Shown: piece after piece, positions 51,425-61,861 of the stretch
Layout of the letters: each line of letters begins with the position of its first letter
Position numbering within the stretch: position 1 is the first letter of the stretch
Source: an uncultured Methanoregulaceae archaeon
GTDB lineage: Archaea > Halobacteriota > Methanomicrobia > Methanomicrobiales > Methanospirillaceae
Assembly: GCA_963841015.1 (NCBI GenBank)
Contig: CAWJAX010000005.1
Location: forward strand, 160,001 to 224,000
Reading direction: 5' to 3'
Length of the DNA: 64,000 nt
The notes under the pieces: model-generated
Told to the model about the DNA's origin: nothing
The model's input: only the letters and a program-made list of their open reading frames with translations
Databases searched by the model: none
Translations under genes and position numbers: made by a program

Positions 51425-54400
51425 ATGAGAGTAAAACCTGGCATTTTACTAATCATTGGTTTGCTGTTCCTGGCGGGAACCGTTACGGCAGTCGGGATTC
51501 CGGATACCCTGACTGTTACTACGGACAAAGCCTGGATCATAGCCAATAATGTGGATCAATCCACTATCATCGTAAAAGTAACGAATACAACCTCGGATCC
51601 TGGTCCTGTACCAGGGATAATCGTAAACCTTGAAGTTGATCCGTTATATGGAAACATCAGTCCCATACAAGTCACCACAAATATATCGGGAATGGCTTCA
51701 AGCACCTTCAAAGTGAGCACCAAGAGTGGTGCAGCACAAATAAATGCATCCATACCCGCGGGGGTTTCTGGTTCCACAATGCAGAATATTGATCATAACA
51801 GTGCCTATTTTGCAGATTTTACGCATCCGATCAATGGAACCGTTGCATCCGAAGTTCCATTTAATGTATCACTTACTGACCAATACCGGAATCCTGTGGA
51901 TAATCGAAGAGGCAACCATATAATAAAACTCCACGTTCATGGTCCTTTCCCGGATGACTGCGGTTTTGCTGAAGCCGGCTATGCACATGATATTTCCCCC
52001 ACGCTTGATGCAAACGGGAACACCACAGTAAATATCAAATTAACCTCTAAAATAGGTGACAACAACGTTGCGATGGACGCATATGAGAGTATCCCGAACC
52101 AACTCGAATGGATCTCTGCCGAGGCAATTGGCAAACCGTTTTCGATGACGCAGGTTATTTCACCTTCGGGATCTCCCCCGACGCTTCCCGCAGACGGGGT
52201 CAGTTATTTCACGATAATTTATAATTTGTTTGATGAATTCGGGAATCCAACGAACAAACAATTTATCTGGGTCAATACCTCCATCCCGGGGGAGGAACAA
52301 CAGTTCCTGTCAAACAATGTGGGTCAGGTAACGGTACAATATGGTCCGAGGTCTTCAATAGGTGAAATTGACATCATTGCAACATCAGTTGCAAATTCGA
52401 CACTTACCTTGACGCAAAGAGTAAAATTCAAGCACACGGGTGCGGAGATCATATCCCTTACCGCAAATCCTGATACTATGCCAAGTCAGGATGCCAATCC
52501 ACTATTTACATCAAATATTATCGCAACGGTTGCGGATATTTCGGGAAATGCAGTTCCCGGGGAAACGGTAGACTTTATTATAGAAAATATAACCTACGAT
52601 GCATCATATAACGTGACGGCAGATCCCAGTCTTTTAAGTTCAAGCGCTATCACCGACGTATATGGACGGGCCTTGGTCCAATTCAGACCCGGGAACTTTA
52701 CAGCAGTTGGCAACCCCGGTTACAATGCAACGGCAACCGGGCATTGTATGATGAATGCAACGTGGAAAAATTCAACAAAAAAAGTTCCCGTCACCTGGAA
52801 GAATTATCCTTATCTGAGTCTGTCAACATCGGTAAATCCCCATACTGTTGAGATAAACAAAACTATTGATGTTACCATTGAGTTCAGAGGTGACGGGTTC
52901 GCATTGCAGCCCACACCCATCGATGTGGTCATGGTCATAGACAAATCGGGCAGTATGGAGAACTATAATATAGGCGGCATTACCCGGATGCAGGCAGCGA
53001 AAAATGCAGCAAGTACGTTTGTCAACAAAATGAATGAAGGGACTGACCGTATCGGTGTTGTAACCTTTGATCGAGAAGACACAGTTATCACTGACGCTCC
53101 TTTGGGCGCCCCCTTCTTAACTATTACGAACACGATCAACGCGATTGATCCTAATAATGGAGGGACTGCAATGCGCCAGGGCTTCAAACAGGGTATCGAT
53201 CATATTAAGGCGAACGGCAGGCCGTCAGCAGTCCGGGCAGTTATTCTCATGACTGACGGGAACTGGAATTTAGGGGGAAGTCCCCTTGCTGTAGGAAGGG
53301 GCTATGATCTCAACACATGGGTCAGAGATAACCGGGATCGTGGCGTAGCCACCAAATATTATGGATTCTCCGGTTTGGCAACAGATTTTGAGGATCAGGA
53401 CTACCGCTGGTATTCTGGACTTGGGGGTAATCTATCTTCCAGTAGTGACACGGTCGTGAGGACACCTCGCAAGATTGATCCAGCAACAGGATTCGACGTG
53501 GCTTCTCGAACGACTGAATCGAGAAGCGGGGGATCCTACTATATTAATGGCCAGTTTACTCAGCAGAACATGTCGATCTACGCAAAGGACAATAATATAC
53601 GGTTGTACACCTTGTCGTTTGCCATGAACATCCCCGCAGACGAGCGTAATGCTCTTATTACTCTTGCAAATTCAACCGGGGGATTCTACCGGCATGCTCC
53701 CACCCAGGCCGATTTAGAAGCATTCTATACAGAAATCGCCGGAGACCTGAAAGATACCGCTGGTGTAAACGCCACCATGACGGCAGATTTCGATAAGATT
53801 AATGTCACGGGTTTTGAAATGGATGGAGACCAGGTATACGACTATGTATACCATCCAACGGAATCGACAAAGATCCGATGGCAGGATGGGATAACAAATG
53901 TGTCTGATCAATCCGCCGATTGGCTTGCAGATAGTAAACTGGACTTCAACATCGGAACAATAAAAGTAGGTCAATACTGGAATGCGACATTCCGGCTGAA
54001 GGTCAAACAGGGTGGCTTGATTGATGTATTCGGCAATCATTCAACGGTATCTTTCAATGGGGGGGCAGAGAACCTGTATCTTCCTCAAACATTCATCACA
54101 GTAATACCCAACCTTTCGGTCACGAATATTACCATGAAAACAATAACTCTCGACAATCTGATGTGTACCGAGACCGGGGAGATCAAGGCACTCTTTCCGG
54201 TACAATGGAACACAAACTATACAGGAAACAAGACCCTCACGGAAAAGGTCTATTACCGTATTGATAATAAGGGACCCTGGGTTCAATTCGACATAAAAAC
54301 ACACCCCTATGATCCACTTACCATGGAATATGTGAATTATGCACAACTCGATGTGACAAAACTCCCATGGGGAAACTACACGATTCAGGTACGTGCAACT

Positions 54401-54556
54401 GCCTCCGATGCGCCTGATGCAACAGCTGAAACCGTCAGTAAAACGGTAGGGGGACGAGGGAAAACGTTTATTAAACTTGAAGCTCCCCCGTTCCTGGACG
54501 ATACGCAGTTCTTCAATCAAAATCCGTGGGGGATTGTGGATAGCAGGAGCATTTAA
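51425..54556 (+). CDS. Large secreted adhesin-like protein: Ig-like (invasin/Big_1-type) repeats plus vWA domain
   Basis: Signal peptide; repeated A+G...TI...V.D..GNPV modules; MIDAS DKSGS, GGT, ILMTDG; many N-x-S/T sequons. Confidence 0.85.
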   Translation: MRVKPGILLIIGLLFLAGTVTAVGIPDTLTVTTDKAWIIANNVDQSTIIVKVTNTTSDPGPVPGIIVNLEVDPLYGNISPIQVTTNISGMASSTFKVSTKSGAAQINASIPAGVSGSTMQNIDHNSAYFADFTHPINGTVASEVPFNVSLTDQYRNPVDNRRGNHIIKLHVHGPFPDDCGFAEAGYAHDISPTLDANGNTTVNIKLTSKIGDNNVAMDAYESIPNQLEWISAEAIGKPFSMTQVISPSGSPPTLPADGVSYFTIIYNLFDEFGNPTNKQFIWVNTSIPGEEQQFLSNNVGQVTVQYGPRSSIGEIDIIATSVANSTLTLTQRVKFKHTGAEIISLTANPDTMPSQDANPLFTSNIIATVADISGNAVPGETVDFIIENITYDASYNVTADPSLLSSSAITDVYGRALVQFRPGNFTAVGNPGYNATATGHCMMNATWKNSTKKVPVTWKNYPYLSLSTSVNPHTVEINKTIDVTIEFRGDGFALQPTPIDVVMVIDKSGSMENYNIGGITRMQAAKNAASTFVNKMNEGTDRIGVVTFDREDTVITDAPLGAPFLTITNTINAIDPNNGGTAMRQGFKQGIDHIKANGRPSAVRAVILMTDGNWNLGGSPLAVGRGYDLNTWVRDNRDRGVATKYYGFSGLATDFEDQDYRWYSGLGGNLSSSSDTVVRTPRKIDPATGFDVASRTTESRSGGSYYINGQFTQQNMSIYAKDNNIRLYTLSFAMNIPADERNALITLANSTGGFYRHAPTQADLEAFYTEIAGDLKDTAGVNATMTADFDKINVTGFEMDGDQVYDYVYHPTESTKIRWQDGITNVSDQSADWLADSKLDFNIGTIKVGQYWNATFRLKVKQGGLIDVFGNHSTVSFNGGAENLYLPQTFITVIPNLSVTNITMKTITLDNLMCTETGEIKALFPVQWNTNYTGNKTLTEKVYYRIDNKGPWVQFDIKTHPYDPLTMEYVNYAQLDVTKLPWGNYTIQVRATASDAPDATAETVSKTVGGRGKTFIKLEAPPFLDDTQFFNQNPWGIVDSRSI

Positions 54557-54770: not shown

Positions 54771-55436
54771 ATGAAAATGATGAAAGATATTTCCCCAAAC
54801 GACAGGCCACGTGAGAAGATTGCAAAAAAAGGCGCCTCTGCCCTTTCAGACACTGAATTGATCGAGGCAATCATTGGGCGGGGAACAAAAAACAAAGACG
54901 TCCGCATGCTTGCAAAAGAAATCTGCGGGCTTATCGAGATACACAGGGAAAAAATCAGGTATGATGATCTGGCAGCAATACAGGGAATCGGACCTACTAA
55001 AGCGTCGCAGATCACGGCATGCTTTGAACTCTCGCGGAGATATTCCCCGAATGGAGGAGCGAATACGCATGTGACAAAACCCGAAGATATCCTCCCCCAT
55101 GTTGCTTATTTAAAAGAAAAACGGCAGGAGCATTTCATCTGTATCACCCTCAATGGCGCCGGTGAGGTTCTCGGTAATAGAACAATAACCCTGGGTCTGC
55201 TCAACCACAGCCTTGTCCATCCGCGGGAGGTGTTTGCCGATGCAATCACGGACAGGGCCGCATCTATCATCTGCGTTCACAATCACCCTTCGGGTTCCCT
55301 TGATCCCAGCCCACAGGACATTGCGATCACAACTCAGCTGAAAGAAGCGGGAGTGCTTCTCGGCATCCAGCTGATTGATCATATCATTGTCACAAAAACC
55401 GGTTACCTGAGCATGAAAGAGCGTGGTCTGATTTAA
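54771..55436 (+). CDS. radC: RadC/UPF0758 JAB-domain protein
   Basis: RPREK, GIGPTKA HhH, VHPREVF, HNHPSG..PS..D, DHII. Confidence 0.93.
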   Translation: MKMMKDISPNDRPREKIAKKGASALSDTELIEAIIGRGTKNKDVRMLAKEICGLIEIHREKIRYDDLAAIQGIGPTKASQITACFELSRRYSPNGGANTHVTKPEDILPHVAYLKEKRQEHFICITLNGAGEVLGNRTITLGLLNHSLVHPREVFADAITDRAASIICVHNHPSGSLDPSPQDIAITTQLKEAGVLLGIQLIDHIIVTKTGYLSMKERGLI

Positions 55437-55700
55437 CGTAAAAAAAGCATCCCGATCCTGCAGGCATCCTGAGGTTCAATTATCCAAAGAATCAATAATA
55501 ATGCTTCATTCGGATTAATTCATGCATGGAAAATATTGGGATTGAAAAAAATTTATTAAAAATATACTCATCCCTGCTCATTCGACAAATTCTCATCCAC
55601 TGAAAGGTGAGATCAAATCCAGTGAATTACTTTACACATAAACCGATTTTTTTAAATTCCCTATTATTTCATAAACATCAATCTTTCAGGCGAGACAAAT

Positions 55701-55727
55701 ATTTATATAACGTAACCACAAAGTGGT
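55701..55727 (+). promoter_or_regulatory. TATA box with adjacent short palindrome upstream of the TasA-like operon
   Basis: TTTATATAA (55702-55710) followed by ACCAC-AAA-GTGGT (55715-55727). Confidence 0.45.
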
Positions 55728-55810
55728 AATTATCCTTTTTACGGGAAGAATTCGTTCAATTCGCTTGAGAGTCTTGAAAAAATAAGGTGGGAAAATTGAG
55801 AAAAAAAGAA

Positions 55811-56488
55811 ATGAGTACGAAAAAAGTTCTCCTAATCAGCATCATGCTGATAGCACTGACTGCACTCCTGACAGGTGTTGGAACAATGGCATATTTCAGT
55901 TCAACACAAACAAGCGGACCAAACCTGCTCAGCACCGGAAGCATTTCAATTAATGTAAATGGTCAGGATCCCTGGTCAGGCACCTTCAACGCAACGCTTG
56001 CAGATGTGAAACCCGGATTAAAGCGTTGGGGAAATGTTACCTTGCAGAACACCGGGCAGAATCAGGCTGATCTCTGGTTGAATACCATAAATGTTGTTAC
56101 CGACAACGGATCAAATACTTCTGCTGAAATTCTGGAGCCCTACGCCTTTGATATCGATGGGGTAATCCGGTATGATTTGTATAATAACACGGGTTCGGGT
56201 CTTCAGCCAATAATCGTGGATACTGATGATTATACAATCAGCACGGGTTCCCATAATTTAACCGGCGCACTTCAGACCACGGCTGTGAAAAATCAATGGA
56301 TTTACCTTGGTAACATTCCCTCCGGAGCAACGTGGCAGATTAACCAGAGTTATATGATGGACGGGAATGTCACCAACTGGGCACAGACGGATAATATGAC
56401 GTTTAACGTTGTATTTTATGCCCAACAAAGCCAGGGCAATCCCCAGCCGGCAGCTCCGTCACCAGAACTGCCCGGACACGGAAGATAA
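55811..56488 (+). CDS. TasA/CalY-like fibre subunit with SipW-cognate signal peptide
   Basis: KK-hydrophobic-GTMA|YFS...N...G.+.+ signal and N-terminal strand; KPG and NTG motifs; AQ...TF.V.F.AQQ C-terminal strand. Confidence 0.85.
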   Translation: MSTKKVLLISIMLIALTALLTGVGTMAYFSSTQTSGPNLLSTGSISINVNGQDPWSGTFNATLADVKPGLKRWGNVTLQNTGQNQADLWLNTINVVTDNGSNTSAEILEPYAFDIDGVIRYDLYNNTGSGLQPIIVDTDDYTISTGSHNLTGALQTTAVKNQWIYLGNIPSGATWQINQSYMMDGNVTNWAQTDNMTFNVVFYAQQSQGNPQPAAPSPELPGHGR

Positions 56489-56496
56489 TCCATAGT

Positions 56497-56516
56497 GTGC
56501 AGGTAATTTCCTGCAC
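56497..56516 (+). terminator. Intergenic hairpin after the TasA-like gene (partial terminator or mRNA stabiliser)
   Basis: GTGCAGG-TAATTT-CCTGCAC. Confidence 0.5.
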
Positions 56517-56534
56517 CGCTACATTTAGGGTGAC

Positions 56535-57068
56535 GTGATTAAGGAGATGAATACGCAAAACCTGAGATTAGTTGAGCCTCAAATAAAAAAACTGGGGAGA
56601 ATCGCGGCAATTCTCATCCTTATTTTAATTATTGCAGGATCATTATTCACGATTTTTACCCCTTTTTTTGGCTGGAGGACTGAGGTCGTCATTTCAGGGA
56701 GTATGGAGCCTGCAATATCAACAGGAAGTGTCGTTATCGTCCGCCCGGTAATTCCTGATACTCTCCGAAAAGGAGATGTAATCATGTATTATTCTCCCGA
56801 TAAATCGAGCCTGACCACACATCGTGTATTTTATGTAGCATCTGAGCCCTCACTCCAGTTCATCACCAAAGGAGATGCCAACAATAATTCTGATGTGATT
56901 CCTGTCACGCCGGGTCAAGTCGTCGGAATAGTTGCATTCACTATACCGTATCTGGGTCTTCTTGCCCAGTTCATCAAAACACCATTTGGATTTACACTTT
57001 TCCTGCTGATCCCGGCAGTGATTCTTATCGGACGCGAGATGCTTGATCTTTGGAGAGAGATGGAATAA
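56535..57068 (+). CDS. sipW: Signal peptidase I, SipW (ER/S26B) type
   Basis: TM, V.SGSMEP (Ser), GDVI, THRV (His), TKGDANN..D, IPYLG, C-terminal TM. Confidence 0.92.
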   Translation: MIKEMNTQNLRLVEPQIKKLGRIAAILILILIIAGSLFTIFTPFFGWRTEVVISGSMEPAISTGSVVIVRPVIPDTLRKGDVIMYYSPDKSSLTTHRVFYVASEPSLQFITKGDANNNSDVIPVTPGQVVGIVAFTIPYLGLLAQFIKTPFGFTLFLLIPAVILIGREMLDLWREME

Positions 57069-57091
57069 CAGAAGAGAAAAGCTGCCAGACC

Positions 57092-58456
57092 ATGAAAAAA
57101 ACAACCATCGTAATAATCGTTTTAACTCTCGTGGTAATTTCTCTCAGCACCTTTGGTACGACACATGCACATTTCACCTCCGGGCAGGTTACAGGTCCGC
57201 ATCTTATTTCCACATGGCAATCCTATTTTTGGATCCAGACCAGTCAGGCTGACTATCAGATGGGGATATTAGAGAATGTTGATATAATATCCAGTCCTGG
57301 TAACGTGAAACTGGTCATGAGAAATATATCTCCGACAATGTATGCAACATTCGGAAGCGGATCAACTACTTTTCAGCAGTATAATGTTTCTAACAACACC
57401 TGGAACTCGCTGGCAAATACACTTGGCAGTATAAGCAACGGAGGGGCTGTTGCAAAAGATAATCTTAGTTACCTTTACGCGTTACGGGGAGGAGGTACTA
57501 CAAATTTTTACCGGTACTCAATCCCGTTCAATAACTGGTCATCCATGACCGTAACTCCCGCCACCATTAATTCCGGTGGCGCTTTGGTATATACCGGCGG
57601 AAATTACCTTTACGCGTTACGGGGGGGCGGACAGCGTAACTTATACCGGTATTCAATGCCCTTCAATAACTGGTCATCCATGACCGCAACTCCCGCCACC
57701 ATTAATTCCGGTGGCGCTTTGGTATATACCGGCGGAAATTACCTTTACGCGTTACGGGGGGGCGGACAGCGTAACTTATACCGGTATTCAATGCCCTTCA
57801 ATAACTGGTCATCCATGACCGTAACTCCCGCCACCATTAATTCCGGTGGCGCTTTGGTATATACCGGCGGAAATTACCTTTACGCGTTACGGGGAGGAGG
57901 TACTACAAATTTTTACCGGTACTCAATCCCGTTCAATAACTGGTCTTCCATGGCCGCAACTCCCGGTCCTGTAAATGCTGGCGGGGCTCTGGTATCTGAT
58001 AACGGGAACAATATTTATGCTTTTAACGGTTCTTCGCAAAAATTCTGGCTCTATAATATTTCCACAAACACCTGGAACGATACTCTTGTTTCTGATCCCC
58101 CCGGTCTGGCAGGCTGGGGGGGCAGTCTTTCGTACCGTCCTGGTTCTTCCGGATATCTGCCACTTGGTAAACTTACTTCAGCCGTATATGATACCGGGAA
58201 TTCTGGTTCACGATGGGACTCCCTTTCCTGGGATAGCACACTTGTTGCAGGAACAAATGTCACGTTTGAGGTGCGAGCGTCCGATATTCCTTATACCAGC
58301 ACAGATTTATTACCTGCATGGCAGCAATCCGGCTGGCCATCACCAGTTAATTCAGGATTACCAACCGGAAGGTACATTCAATGGCGTGCAACCCTCTTCA
58401 CGACAGATACATCAGGAACGCCAATTCTTAGTGAGGTGCGGGTATGGTACTCATAA
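57092..58456 (+). CDS. SipW-cognate secreted protein with Kelch-like beta-propeller (putative tip adhesin)
   Basis: KK-hydrophobic-GTTHA|HFTS signal; six Y..RGG...YRY....N.W repeats. Confidence 0.8.
   Translation: MKKTTIVIIVLTLVVISLSTFGTTHAHFTSGQVTGPHLISTWQSYFWIQTSQADYQMGILENVDIISSPGNVKLVMRNISPTMYATFGSGSTTFQQYNVSNNTWNSLANTLGSISNGGAVAKDNLSYLYALRGGGTTNFYRYSIPFNNWSSMTVTPATINSGGALVYTGGNYLYALRGGGQRNLYRYSMPFNNWSSMTATPATINSGGALVYTGGNYLYALRGGGQRNLYRYSMPFNNWSSMTVTPATINSGGALVYTGGNYLYALRGGGTTNFYRYSIPFNNWSSMAATPGPVNAGGALVSDNGNNIYAFNGSSQKFWLYNISTNTWNDTLVSDPPGLAGWGGSLSYRPGSSGYLPLGKLTSAVYDTGNSGSRWDSLSWDSTLVAGTNVTFEVRASDIPYTSTDLLPAWQQSGWPSPVNSGLPTGRYIQWRATLFTTDTSGTPILSEVRVWYS
57469..57990 (+). repeat. About 3.9 near-identical 135-bp (45-aa) tandem repeats inside the propeller gene
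   Basis: TTACCTTTACGCGTTACGGGG recurs at 57469, 57604, 57739 and 57874. Confidence 0.95.
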
Positions 58457-58517
58457 GCACAAGTGCGCAAGTATTCATCCCATTAAGGAAATACCTCGTA
58501 ATGCTGAGGGGGGTATA

Positions 58518-59336
58518 TTGACGATTTCAGGGATTACTTACCGGAATTCATTATTCCCTCTGGCGGGATTCATTTTCATCCTTCTCTTTCTCCTGCCTGT
58601 ACCTGTTTTTGCACAGGGCCCCGTTGACCTCACTTTCGAAGAAACGGGTGTTTTCCCCTGGAGTATCACGGGAATTCTACCAGGAGATCATGGTTCTACC
58701 TTTATCGATCTTCACAATAACGGAACCGAGAGTGGGATTGTCTATATCTGGGTTGACAATATCAGCACTACCGATCGATACGGTAATCCGGGAGGCGGGC
58801 TGGCAAATTATATGTACTTCAATGTCTCAAATCATGACCTTACCAGCACAATAAATCTTCCAGCCCGAATCAATTCCTTTCCAAAAGCTCCCCTCCTCGA
58901 GGACCATTTCATCATTATCGATTCATTCAAACCCGGAGATACCATCAGACTTAACTGGACATGGGAATTTGAAGAAACGGGACAACCACAGAATGATGCA
59001 CAGAATAATACTCTTCACTTCAACATCTCATACACGCTGGTGAATCTGACCGCCCCCGTGATACCAACGCCAGTACCAACGGGTATCCAACCTGGTTTGC
59101 CGGGGGGAACAGGAATGAATCCCCAAAATCCTTCCCTGTTCGAGCCCGGAGGGATCCCGGGATTAAATCCTGCTCAACGTCCCCAACTCAGAGCACCAAT
59201 TGAAGAGCCGCCTGAAATGGAGATCGAGCAACCGGAACTCCCTGAATACGGATGCATTATGGCGATAGGGCTCATCGCCATAATTTTCATAATCTCCGTT
59301 CTGGTGCTCTGGAAACGGAAAAAAGACAGGAAATAA
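58518..59336 (+). CDS. Membrane-anchored TasA-fold-like protein (putative pilus base); start reassigned to TTG 58518
   Basis: GAGGGGGG RBS; ordinary signal peptide ending VFA; ILPGD, NNGT, KPGD, NDAQNNTLHFNISYTL; Pro-rich linker; LPEYG, TM helix, KRKKDRK. Confidence 0.75.
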   Translation: MTISGITYRNSLFPLAGFIFILLFLLPVPVFAQGPVDLTFEETGVFPWSITGILPGDHGSTFIDLHNNGTESGIVYIWVDNISTTDRYGNPGGGLANYMYFNVSNHDLTSTINLPARINSFPKAPLLEDHFIIIDSFKPGDTIRLNWTWEFEETGQPQNDAQNNTLHFNISYTLVNLTAPVIPTPVPTGIQPGLPGGTGMNPQNPSLFEPGGIPGLNPAQRPQLRAPIEEPPEMEIEQPELPEYGCIMAIGLIAIIFIISVLVLWKRKKDRK

Positions 59337-59539: not shown

Positions 59540-61861
59540 ATGAAACTGTTTGATTCTTCACGGCAGGACAAGCCCGTTTTTTTCCCTTGTTTTACATTTG
59601 TGTTTTTCATTCAGATCTTCTTTATTCTCCTGCTTTTACTATTCAACCCGGTTCATGCAGCTACCGATACTACGCCGGGATCAGCTCCTCAACTGGGATG
59701 GATGAATACATTCGAACAACCTGTTGAAGGAGGGAAATATTCAATCATTGCTGTAAGTGATGGGGGATCCGTGGCCATAGGAAATAGCAAATCCCTTCCA
59801 GGAAGTTCCAGTCTATACATCCTCAAAACTGATACAAATGGAAATAAAGTGTGGGAATGGACCGATGCTGGAAGTACCTACGAGGGATATTCTATTATTG
59901 AAACACGGGATAAAGGGTACATTATCGCCGGGAGTTCCAATACTACCACCACCAACGGGATTATCCTCAGGAAACTTGATCAGGCCGGAAAAATGACATG
60001 GACACAGCTATTCAATAAAGGTGAATATTACTTCGGTAATTATGTCAGTCCAACACGTGACGGTGGATTCATCGTTGCCGGGTCCGTGTTGAGGAATGAC
60101 ACTTCTCAATCATCACTCTGGGATGGTTACACTCTCAAAACCGATGCTGAAGGGAGAGAACAGTGGACCGGTTTTTTTAAGGGTGAAAAAAATGATTTTG
60201 CCAGGTTTATCCGCCAGACTGAAGATGGAGGGTACATAGTTGCCGGAATTACCGAAAGCTATGGCATTAACGGTGTTCCCTCTACGTACCTGCACAAAAT
60301 GAATGAATTTGGTAATAAAGAATGGTTTACTACCTATGGGACCGGGCCGGGGGATGAAAAACTATCGGTCATTCAAACGCCCGATGGAGGATATATCATC
60401 ATGGGAATCTCCCTGCCCGTTGCCATCAATCAAGGATATAAGGATCTTTTCCTGGTCAGAACCGATGATCATGGAAAAGAACTGTGGAGAAAAAATATTC
60501 CCGTGAGGGGGAGAGCCACAGGTAACATCCTTATCCCGGCGGCTGAAGGTGTAACCGTTATTGCAGGTTCTTACCAGGGATCTGAACGAGAAAAAACCGG
60601 CGAGATAATCATACTGGACATTGACCTGAACGGCAACGAGAAGCAGAACCGGACATTCAGTATTGGAAAATCTATCGATATTCAGGATATTGCGGTTGTC
60701 CCGGGTGAGGGATATTTCGTTACCGGTTTAGTATCCGGACCAGGAGGCCTTGAAAAAAAAGGGTTTACCATTATTAAGATACTCGATACCCCTTACCGCA
60801 CTGAAGTAACCGTAAAAAACTCATTCGAACTCACGGTAATAACAAAAGATGCTAAAACGGGGACATTTATTGGAGGGGCTCATGTATATCTCGATGGTAG
60901 GTCTACCGGAAGCACCTCGGAGCAGGATGGAAAGCAGATTCTCCGTGATGTTGAGAAGGGCTCACATACTATCAGGGTGGCAAAATCAGGATATGAAGAG
61001 ATTACCCGACCAGTAGATATTACTGAAAAGAAGCAGATCACCTTCACTCTCAACCGATCAAACGTGATACCGGTACAAATCCACGGATCAACAGATGAAA
61101 AGATCGATATTGTTTTTGTGCCTTCAAAAACTTCATTTAACTGTAATTCCAAAACAAAAATCCAGACCGACGCATATACCGGTAATCAGCAACGATTCAT
61201 CCAAGATGTAAACAATAAAATTGATGTATTTTTAACATTGGATTCCCTGACATCCGGCTCGGTGGGTTTGCCCGGGGATTTCAGGGAGCGTTTCAATTTT
61301 TATTACTACTGGGATACCGGAAGTTTCGCTGATGCTTTCGACGGTTGTGCTGGAACACTTCCCAATGAATTCTGGAATGATGCACCATTCACTGATGTGG
61401 CAATTATCATGTACCCATCCTATGAGGGTCGCTATTCCGGCTCTCCCTGTGAACCAATTGGGTGTGCAAACGGCCTGGGGCCCGGATCAGGATCCTGGCT
61501 GAAAGCACCAGCTGATTCTCCGATGATTTTTCTGCATGAGAGCGGGCATGTGGTCTTTGGTCTGATTGATACCTATTGCGGGGATACCTATTACGTGGAA
61601 AATTCTCCTTTTCCCAATGTCTGGAGTTCTGAGTCCTCATGCAAAAAAAAAGCCGAGCAGGAACGCTGGGATAGCACAAGCTGCCGGCAAATTTTAAAAC
61701 CTCCCAGCAGCCGTCCGATAGATCCCTGTGTGAAAAATTTCTGGAGAGCGGATACAGATCCCGATATCATGGGCAGCGGGGCATATTCCGGCAGGTTCGG
61801 CAATGCATCGACATCACGTATCCGCCATATTTTTGATACGATCAACAGGTGGCAGAAATGA
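59540..61861 (+). CDS. Secreted protein: DGG(Y/F)IxAG repeat propeller, PEGA-like domain and M64-like zinc metallopeptidase
   Basis: Signal peptide; repeated T.DGGYI.AG..; VYLDG...G.T...G.HTIRV.K.GYE; IDIVFVP, FNFY, HESGH...GL.D.Y. Confidence 0.75.
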   Translation: MKLFDSSRQDKPVFFPCFTFVFFIQIFFILLLLLFNPVHAATDTTPGSAPQLGWMNTFEQPVEGGKYSIIAVSDGGSVAIGNSKSLPGSSSLYILKTDTNGNKVWEWTDAGSTYEGYSIIETRDKGYIIAGSSNTTTTNGIILRKLDQAGKMTWTQLFNKGEYYFGNYVSPTRDGGFIVAGSVLRNDTSQSSLWDGYTLKTDAEGREQWTGFFKGEKNDFARFIRQTEDGGYIVAGITESYGINGVPSTYLHKMNEFGNKEWFTTYGTGPGDEKLSVIQTPDGGYIIMGISLPVAINQGYKDLFLVRTDDHGKELWRKNIPVRGRATGNILIPAAEGVTVIAGSYQGSEREKTGEIIILDIDLNGNEKQNRTFSIGKSIDIQDIAVVPGEGYFVTGLVSGPGGLEKKGFTIIKILDTPYRTEVTVKNSFELTVITKDAKTGTFIGGAHVYLDGRSTGSTSEQDGKQILRDVEKGSHTIRVAKSGYEEITRPVDITEKKQITFTLNRSNVIPVQIHGSTDEKIDIVFVPSKTSFNCNSKTKIQTDAYTGNQQRFIQDVNNKIDVFLTLDSLTSGSVGLPGDFRERFNFYYYWDTGSFADAFDGCAGTLPNEFWNDAPFTDVAIIMYPSYEGRYSGSPCEPIGCANGLGPGSGSWLKAPADSPMIFLHESGHVVFGLIDTYCGDTYYVENSPFPNVWSSESSCKKKAEQERWDSTSCRQILKPPSSRPIDPCVKNFWRADTDPDIMGSGAYSGRFGNASTSRIRHIFDTINRWQK

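Follow-up and report, generated by a model that had tools for sequence, protein, structure and literature searches.

Fibers of the TasA type grow when the N-terminal strand of one subunit enters the next. In Bacillus subtilis, which encodes the tapA-sipW-tasA operon, residues 28 to 38 of TasA form the strand donated to the following subunit (Bohning et al., PMC9674648), and TapA donates its N-terminus to TasA (PMC9674648; PMC10151520). In the tafi system of Haloarcula hispanica (TafA-G), as described in PMC11821415, TafA is the shaft, TafC is a donor-strand tip or activator with an outward laminin-G-like head, TafD is a dedicated signal peptidase I, and TafF is a membrane-spanning pilin-like subunit that takes the last donor strand, ending assembly. 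Among the accounts that we draw on, this haloarchaeal model is the sole comparable full one, and it rests largely on structure prediction. For Natrinema Tafi, a shaft from cryo-electron microscopy, a proposed tip and proposed TafF1/F2 anchors have been described (PMC12337348). Pyrobaculum AbpB has been proposed as the giver of the first strand and the bearer of distal adhesin-like domains (PMC9245690), and in bacterial AbpX loci, SLH and LPXTG anchor proteins are predicted to join the fiber via donor-strand complementation (bioRxiv 10.64898/2026.01.04.697558). Methanomicrobiales are not among the archaeal orders that main text section 9 of Wang et al. (PMC9245690) names as having homologs in PF12389, the Pfam family of TasA. 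Our searches returned papers on tafi, Tafi, AbpA, AbpX, threads and cannulae as archaeal donor-strand pili, none on Methanomicrobiales, and no literature linking TasA-like proteins or fibers with methanogens. Here we analyze four adjacent genes (G1 to G4) from an uncultured Methanoregulaceae archaeon, located at positions 55811-59336 of a 64,000-nucleotide (nt) stretch of DNA (the window; C5:160001-224000 of a 2.28-Mb genome in 5 contigs).

We estimate a probability of roughly 60% that these four genes form a self-contained cassette, one that encodes a fiber of the TasA superfamily tethered to the cell and assembled by donor-strand exchange outside the membrane. An earlier note, made from the DNA letters, had read them as shaft, peptidase, tip and base, and the families, folds, synteny and complex model reported below, all in silico, support that reading. 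The genes are as follows (aa, amino acids).

55811-56488, + strand: G1, proposed shaft subunit, 225 aa, ATG start with an alternative GTG at 55787
56535-57068, + strand: G2, proposed peptidase, 177 aa, GTG start with an in-frame ATG at 56547
57092-58456, + strand: G3, proposed initiator and tip, 454 aa
58518-59336, + strand: G4, proposed terminator and base, 272 aa, TTG start with a G-rich stretch ahead of it

In the mechanism that we propose, G2 would remove the signal peptides of G1 and G3, baring their N-terminal strands. G3, which has a donor strand and no TasA body, would insert its strand into the first G1, and each complemented G1 would then free its own strand for the next G1, and so on. 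Because G3 would donate the first strand and the chain of G1 would follow, G3 with its Kelch propeller would come to lie at the distal tip. G4, which has a TasA fold and no donor strand, would accept the last G1 strand, and growth would end there because G4 has nothing to donate. The Pro-rich linker of ~65 residues and the C-terminal transmembrane (TM) helix of G4 would tether the fiber to the cytoplasmic membrane; judging from its 65 residues, the linker could span roughly 20 nm if extended.

G1 carries the family assignment. It scored 31.8 bits against Pfam PF12389 (Peptidase_M73, TasA/camelysin) over profile positions 3-195, above the gathering cutoff of 22.5, and was the sole match to this profile in a six-frame search of the genome; its other Pfam match, DUF237, fell far under its own cutoff. 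The model of the SipW-cognate signal, TIGR04088, was passed as well (25.2 bits, cutoff 19, residues 13-44), which confirms the proposal that a SipW-type signal precedes a TasA-like body in this protein. A family profile of 15 homologs matched the TasA fiber (8aur, E 6.6e-5) and the TasA monomer (5of1, E 8.5e-5) among Protein Data Bank (PDB) sequences. The gene is present once in the genome, and its product has nine N-x-S/T sequons. We place the predicted cleavage after Ala27 because G24, A27, Y28, F29 and S30 are unchanged across the 15 homologs and because the site agrees with the alignment to TasA numbering (PMC9674648). Judged from sequence and model together, G1 has its N-terminal donor strand right behind the signal cleavage site, as a TasA-type subunit does.

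55811-55891, + strand: G1 signal peptide, residues 1-27, predicted cleavage after Ala27
55892-55948, + strand: predicted G1 N-terminal donor strand, residues 28-46, in contact with G4 in the complex model

G4 is related to G1 and differs from it at exactly this end. Its parts, with structural features taken from an AlphaFold2 (AF2) model and confidence given as the predicted local distance difference test (pLDDT), are the following.

58518-58613, + strand: G4 signal peptide of the ordinary kind, residues 1-32, hydrophobic over 8-26 with an AF2 helix at 13-25, and without a donor motif after it
58614-59051, + strand: TasA-like jelly-roll ectodomain of G4, residues 33-178, pLDDT 85-94
59052-59246, + strand: Pro-rich disordered linker of G4, residues 179-243, 17 Pro among 65 residues, pLDDT <50 over 180-249
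59250-59333, + strand: C-terminal TM helix and basic tail of G4, residues 245-272, AF2 helix 245-271, hydrophobic 19-mer 240-258

The two proteins are each other's sole relatives in the genome, where G4, too, is single copy. Alignment of the two families by hhalign (97.5%, E 7.9e-12, 149 columns) paired G4 residues 33-184 with G1 residues 41-214 and included the motif pairs that had been picked out by eye; homology begins at G4 residue 33, which corresponds to G1 residue 41. The best solved match of the G4 ectodomain in the Foldseek comparison suggested earlier was the TasA monomer 5of2 (E 4.1e-4). Residues 31-180 of the model superpose on TasA residues 39-236 of this entry (VIA Z 10.5, root mean square deviation [rmsd] 3.5, 142 aligned residues), with the next unrelated entry at Z 6.9. 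A profile of the G4 family searched against PDB sequences gave only a spurious match in the TM region (E 1.8). Because the aligned region starts at TasA residue 39, G4 is without the donor segment of TasA residues 28-38, and since that segment is absent, we interpret G4 as an acceptor-only derivative and not as a polymerizing subunit. The protein was thus described correctly as lacking the strand, having an ordinary signal peptide and ending in a Pro-rich linker and TM anchor.

These properties extend to a sizeable family. Among 1.84 billion proteins, a profile of the G4 ectodomain found 316 cluster representatives at E<=1e-3, 201 at <=1e-10 and 81 at <=1e-30. We inspected 148 of the best 150 representatives: 130 of the 148 open with a hydrophobic segment that has the domain directly behind it, 107 carry one or more hydrophobic segments at the C-terminal end, and a regular expression for a donor-like motif matched none of the 148 within the first 70 residues. 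Ten members were scanned against Pfam; four pass PF12389 (from positions ~39 on), seven pass CARDB and one has PKD repeats. Where a source gives a name at all, it is "hypothetical protein" or "CARDB." Homologs of G4 have one to several C-terminal hydrophobic segments. In 16 of 16 aligned homologs, an invariant Pro stands right before the TM segment and a basic tail comes after it, an arrangement reminiscent of tripartite sorting signals, and the genome encodes an exosortase/archaeosortase-family protein (G000:C3:291162-291734, 43.9 bits). We considered an archaeosortase sorting signal in G4 and rejected it; a plain TM anchor is favored because no CTERM model matched and most homologs have further TM segments.

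The G1-G4 pair was modeled as two copies of mature G1 (residues 28-225) together with the G4 ectodomain, using a separate alignment for each. Three runs gave ipSAE interface scores of 0.77, 0.76 and 0.78, and the best of three controls reached 0.01; the runs had at least 98% of contacts in common, and the partner pLDDT was 91. The strand of one G1 copy (28-46) lies on G4 ectodomain residues 129-144 (the last strand), 2-8, 14-25 and 117-127, with G1 residues 31-43 running antiparallel to ectodomain residues 142-130. The conserved C-terminal tail of G1 (206-214) also contacts G4. In the model, this interface is donor-strand complementation, and the multimer check of G1 with G4 that the earlier note had called for thus placed the strand on G4 as predicted.

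The modeled interface is compatible with either order of events, and G4 might act first, as a membrane starting platform that captures the first G1 strand and from which the fiber grows outward, or as a dock for released matrix fibers, possibly those of neighbors, with G3 capping or decorating the distal end late. The TM anchor puts G4 beside the secretion site, and AbpA bundles are described as holding filaments of opposite polarity from different cells (PMC9245690). We nevertheless consider such a role unlikely. A TasA subunit is thought to keep its donor strand in place as long as no strand complements its own groove, which favors a donor-only starter such as G3 (PMC9674648), base-first growth would require subunits to diffuse to the distal end, and the TM subunit comes last in the tafi model (PMC11821415). 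Because a TasA subunit would free its strand only when complemented, and because the tafi model has the same sequence of events, we prefer tip-first assembly with G4 as the terminator.

G2 passes TIGR02228, the model of archaeal signal peptidase I, with 106.8 bits (cutoff 51.85), and has hydrophobic segments at both termini. It stays under the cutoff of the Bacillus SipW equivalog model NF046067 (111.1 bits versus 190), and for this reason we call it a SipW-like archaeal peptidase and not a SipW orthologue; the earlier designation of a SipW peptidase is retained for the family and dropped for the equivalog. The genome has one other signal peptidase I match, which lies outside the window (G000:C5:254398-254997), scores 41.5 bits, under the cutoff, and is presumably the housekeeping enzyme. 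As this single other match is the weaker one, G2 appears to be an extra, locus-specific peptidase, and it may be specific for G1 and G3. The translated N-termini of both proposed substrates contain Lys and no Arg-Arg of the twin-arginine (Tat) type.

In surveys of the order and of species representatives, the genes keep their order wherever the flanks suffice to read it. Across the order, the G4 query matched 13 of 201 genomes, its own included, and two of these 13 matches were weak and partial; within the genus, 2 of 15 other genomes matched, and in a second Methanomicrobiales genus 7 of 12 did. Eleven regions were fetched. All six with long flanks are ordered G1-G2-G3-G4 (in two, G1 was missed by tblastn and read in the list of open reading frames [ORFs]), four on short contigs show the C-terminus of G3 adjoining G4, and in one the match is weak and confined to 57 residues. 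A scan of species representatives yielded 15 loci: 12 from Methanoregula/Methanoregulaceae and one each from Methanofollis, Methanomassiliicoccus and a Dehalococcoidales bacterium. The same order was found in 9 of 9 loci with enough upstream flank, including those of Methanomassiliicoccus and the Dehalococcoidales bacterium; the other 6 of 15 are cut by contig ends and have the expected partial sets. The two surveys overlap, with some contigs common to both, and both show the co-occurrence in relatives that had been anticipated. At the phylum level, 11 of 401 genomes matched. Because the matching genomes are few and scattered, the cassette is rare and patchy and probably mobile.

Some loci depart from the standard form. 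In three Methanoregulaceae metagenome-assembled genomes (MAGs; L032, L035 and L036), which are among the 9 loci with enough upstream flank, at least one of G1, G3 and G4 is split over two or more ORFs, which could reflect assembly errors or decaying copies. A locus from another family of the phylum (L052, G349:C1:385000-400000) carries all four gene types in a different order. The peptidase comes first, followed by a G3 of 1668 aa that contains several DUF2341/LamG-like modules, a G1 of 714 aa fused to a repeat domain, a G4 of 287 aa with a TM segment at its C-terminus, a G1 of 219 aa and finally G1 fragments.

G3 is a secreted protein with no TasA body. Its AF2 monomer model (mean pLDDT 82.8) has a signal helix at residues 2-19, no secondary structure over residues 20-44 (pLDDT <50 at 21-34) and a beta domain made of residues 45-79 and 353-454, between which a Kelch propeller is inserted. 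In this model, the N-terminus does not fold into a domain of its own, in agreement with the earlier note. Four features are relevant here (TRF, Tandem Repeats Finder).

57170-57217, + strand: putative G3 donor-strand mimic, residues 27-42, directly after the predicted cleavage Ala26|His27
57323-58147, + strand: six-bladed Kelch beta-propeller of G3, residues 78-352, putative adhesin/lectin module
57469-57965, + strand: 135-bp tandem repeat encoding near-identical Kelch blades, 3.7 copies, 92% matches, score 794 (TRF)
58148-58453, + strand: C-terminal beta-rich domain of G3, residues 353-454, with strands over 358-453 in the model

The beta-propeller recognized by eye is well supported: it superposes on the Kelch domain of KLHL17 (6hrl_B; VIA Z 36.0, rmsd 1.5, 262 aligned residues), and G3 passes Pfam Kelch_6 (31 bits, cutoff 25.3). 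Metagenome homologs of G3 are 319, 364, 409 and 454-455 aa long, in steps of one 45-aa blade, and in a same-genus genome, the tandem repeat coincides with a run of N; the length classes may be either real variation in blade number or collapse of the repeat in assembly. The conserved core of the family consists of residues 45-79 and the C-terminal domain. The C-terminal ~100 aa share 46-54% identity with G3 homologs of the second genus and have 12 invariant columns among 11 sequences. This domain had no Pfam match, and its profile found nothing credible among PDB sequences (best E 1.4). Matches in a VIA search with the whole model were all taken up by Kelch propellers, and an Atlas feature search with the core returned unnamed clusters only, under 0.9. 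The gene is single copy in the genome.

The N-terminus of G3 resembles that of G1. Among 1,695,494 16-mers from six-frame ORFs of the genome, residues 27-42 of G3 were the top non-self match of G1 residues 28-43 (score 44; next, 38). BLASTP aligned G3 residues 3-41 with G1 residues 4-42 ungapped (E 8e-5), hhalign matched the two families over 38 columns and in the N-terminal region alone (76.7%, E 2.1e-5), and a hidden Markov model (HMM) of the G3 N-terminus had G1 as its best non-self match in the genome (E 0.018). By these sequence comparisons, the likeness is beyond chance. The TapA model TIGR04087 (YqxM_for_SipW) did not match G3, which may act like TapA yet is no member of that family. 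Insertion of the G3 strand into G1 would be in keeping with the strand being free in the monomer model and with the examples of TapA and TafC.

In homologs of G3, the signal, the strand, a short segment near the N-terminus and the last ~100 residues are kept, and the middle varies. The middle is a Kelch propeller in the Methanoregula types, DUF2341 and LamG-like modules in the second genus and the Dehalococcoidales bacterium, and His-rich in other lineages; it is missing in Methanomassiliicoccus (176 aa) and in locus L023. Since the middle is swapped between lineages, the pattern fits a tip adhesin whose heads can be exchanged, and we speculate that the propeller would mediate adhesion.

G3 could also stand outside the fiber, as a secreted or surface Kelch lectin that uses the same peptidase, its N-terminal likeness to G1 reflecting recognition of the cleavage site. 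TIGR04088 describes a SipW-dependent signal that extends past the cleavage site, the likeness covers the signal and only ~16 mature residues, an aromatic P2' residue is known in the SipW substrate TasA (PMC10269814), and model support for strand insertion covers G1-G4 and not G3-G1. We regard this as quite unlikely, given that the equivalent residues of TasA are its donor strand (PMC9674648) and that the G3 strand tracks lineage-specific changes of the cognate G1 well past the cleavage site. The strand is also unstructured in the monomer model, G3 always lies between the peptidase and G4, and TapA and TafC are precedents for a fiber component of this kind. A place for G3 at the tip of the fiber therefore remains our preference.

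Several observations weigh against the fiber reading as a whole. TIGR04088 gave no G3 match at E<=10, whether it was run on just the first 60 aa or across the genome, so the proposal that G3 has the same signal class as G1 holds for the direct likeness between the two proteins and not for the model. With short strand HMMs of 16-20 columns, the one from G3 ranked G1 at E 0.39, after one unrelated ORF, and the one from G1 did not recover G3 among genome ORFs at E<=5. Cognate G1 and G3 strands share 8, 8, 5, 7, 8 and 9 of 16 residues in six lineages, and the observed summed score is attained in 3 of 720 permutations, which speaks for co-variation of the two strands; however, the signal comes from two Methanoregulaceae lineages in which both proteins are off the canonical motif, cognate pairs do no better than noncognate pairs in the four lineages with that motif, and the lineages are kin and hence not independent. 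G4 reaches 17.4 bits against PF12389 (E 0.0042, positions 37-185), its only Pfam match and under the cutoff of 22.5. Its TasA-like fold is as the earlier note had foreseen, but the open groove is not evident: the monomer model is closer to closed TasA (Z 10.5) than to the fiber form (8aur, Z 6.8). Among 80 solved complexes, 58 attain the ipSAE mark that the complex passed, as do 2 of 110 mismatched pairs, a calibration that is only rough here, with author-made alignments and three chains unlike those of the calibration set. The pass may partly reflect memory, since the TasA fiber (8aur) was already solved, and as a model the complex indicates likeness rather than binding; its scores cover the G1-G4 interface and not G1-G1 contacts, and homopolymerization of G1 is a proposed step. 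By the counts for order, genus and phylum given above, the cassette is accessory.

Moreover, the fiber, its processing and its interactions are predictions from genes and models. This leaves some room for G1 and G4 as nonpolymerizing surface or matrix proteins, for example a protease like camelysin or a coat component that stays monomeric, in a cluster that would be a loose secreted set; PF12389 is named after a reported metalloprotease, and TasA is also stable as a monomer (PMC9674648). We judge this very improbable. The four-gene order is kept across two archaeal orders and a bacterium, the donor segment is precisely what is absent from G4, the donor motif is conserved in G1, and the strand interface is specific by comparison with its control. 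On balance, a tethered TasA-type fiber accounts best for the cassette.

Between 55811 and 59336, the ORF list and the sequence show the four co-directional + strand genes, separated by gaps of 46 nt (G1-G2), 23 nt (G2-G3) and 61 nt (G3-G4). A RadC gene is found 374 nt upstream of the cassette, and the next gene 203 nt downstream. G4 appears to start at the TTG at 58518, as no ATG or GTG in frame lies behind the G3 stop and ahead of the signal peptide; a same-genus homolog likewise starts with TTG, and gene-caller homologs of 272 aa align at 100% coverage. A candidate for a promoter was noted by eye ahead of G1.

55700-55709, + strand: TATA-like A+T-rich stretch and possible archaeal promoter element, ~80-110 nt 5' of the G1 start

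A scan for sigma-70 promoters and intrinsic terminators was set aside as meaningless for an archaeon. The nearest named relatives are Methanoregula/Methanoregulaceae MAGs. Contigs from metatranscriptomic libraries of two studies match parts of G1, G2, G3 and G4 at 90-99% likeness, and one of them bridges the G1-G2 gap (56268-56651). Their word shares are small (0.06-0.08). They indicate presence in an RNA library and not transcript ends, strand or level, and the stretches left uncovered carry no meaning; carried-over DNA in the libraries is possible, which also tells against taking the contigs as expression of the cassette.

The cassette has further genes beside it. Upstream, a gene for a secreted protein of 1043 aa that has Big_1/invasin-like and VWA domains (51425-54556) and the RadC gene (54771-55436) adjoin the cassette in the same-genus genome as well, and not in other genera. 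Downstream lies a 773-aa protein (59540-61861) that has a hydrophobic segment at its N-terminus, Gly-rich beta units in repeats, a PEGA/CarboxypepD_reg domain and an HExxH motif close to the C-terminus. In L052:5377-7518, a TasA domain that bears a donor strand is fused to a repeat region similar to that of the 773-aa protein, and because of this fusion the downstream protein may be linked functionally to the fiber.

Little is understood about how hydrogenotrophic methanogens attach to partners, particles and granules, and to our knowledge, adhesive fibers of methanogens are few beyond Mth60 fimbriae and type IV-like pili. If the reading proposed here is true, the fibers may serve in methanogen-syntroph or granule attachment, and the cassette offers a small, testable four-protein system with predicted cleavage sites, assembly order and capping reaction. 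The donor-less anchored TasA domain is a sizeable family now annotated as "hypothetical" or "CARDB," and it could be used to separate tethered TasA-type pili from released matrix fibers in genomes. That a Dehalococcoidales bacterium has the same cassette suggests that archaea and bacteria of anoxic sediments have exchanged attachment organelles. More tentatively, and at rather less than even odds, we speculate that this is a compact, horizontally mobile "plug-and-play" pilus cassette common to methanogens (Methanomicrobiales and Methanomassiliicoccales) and Dehalococcoidia, which retains the strand-plus-sandwich core of its tip subunit, swaps the inserted adhesin and draws a donor-less TasA-fold terminator and tether from a large unnamed family. 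As that family is large, donor-less and often TM-ended, membrane-anchored TasA-type pili may be a widespread, perhaps unrecognized, attachment organelle of uncultured anaerobes.

Compared with the tapA-sipW-tasA operon of Bacillus subtilis (5of1/5of2, 8aur), the cassette has a G1 of the same Pfam family with a SipW-cognate signal, an archaeal-type dedicated signal peptidase in the operon and a G4 whose fold matches TasA; TapA, like G3, combines a TasA-like N-terminal strand with another body (PMC9674648; PMC10151520). The two differ in that G3 is no TapA homolog and has as its body a Kelch propeller set into a different beta domain. In addition, the Bacillus operon is without a donor-less, TM-anchored TasA paralogue, its gene order differs, and G2 scores 111 bits where the SipW equivalog asks for 190.

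In proposed mechanism, tafi of Haloarcula hispanica, as PMC11821415 describes it, is the nearest system. The cassette appears to have the same architecture of donor-strand tip, major pilin, signal peptidase I and membrane-spanning pilin-like protein. The signal type of TafF differs from that of the pilins, as that of G4 does from G1 and G3, and the DUF2341/LamG-type inserts of G3 homologs recall the laminin-G-like head of TafC. In contrast, the tafi pilins are described as Tat-secreted and their nonhalophilic relatives as DUF1102 proteins, whereas the cassette uses Sec-type signals, G1 is without a twin-arginine and its only significant Pfam match is PF12389. Among the eight neighboring proteins scanned, neither DUF1102 nor DUF5305 appeared in Pfam matches at E<=0.1, and equivalents of TafB, TafE and TafG (DUF5305) were not found. 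Sec-type TafF analogues of Thermococcus and Archaeoglobus are given there as being without a TM segment, and G4 has one. All of these parallels set the cassette beside published descriptions of the Taf proteins, not their sequences.

The Pyrobaculum AbpA/AbpB system (7ueg; PMC9245690) has a TasA-like jelly-roll pilin that polymerizes by way of a donor strand at its N-terminus. As presented in that paper, the abp locus is without a dedicated peptidase, no donor-less anchored paralogue is described, and AbpA is distantly related to PF12389, of which G1 is a direct member. The AbpX loci of Pyrodictium abyssi and its homologs (bioRxiv 10.64898/2026.01.04.697558) combine a TIGR02228 peptidase with minor subunits and predicted tip proteins, as reported there, but AbpX is a subfamily separate from TasA, and its anchors are bacterial cell-wall anchors and not a C-terminal TM segment on a donor-less archaeal TasA domain.

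Chaperone-usher (Fim/Pap) and sortase pili are functional analogues, built tip-first with a lectin-bearing tip and a dedicated terminator or base. In Fim/Pap pili, the tip is acceptor-only and the terminator donates, and the proteins are unrelated to the TasA type. The polarity of the cassette would be the opposite, with a tip that donates and a base that accepts, and it is without a chaperone, usher or sortase. Comparison with Fim/Pap and sortase pili is also made in the tafi and TasA papers (PMC11821415; PMC9674648). The earlier note had known of no characterized fiber of this kind in Methanomicrobiales, and the novelty is narrower than it had taken it to be: a scheme of tip, shaft, peptidase and anchor has already been proposed for haloarchaeal tafi (PMC11821415; PMC12337348) and, in the account cited above, for AbpX loci. 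What appears new here is a scheme of this kind in the TasA family proper and in a methanogen.

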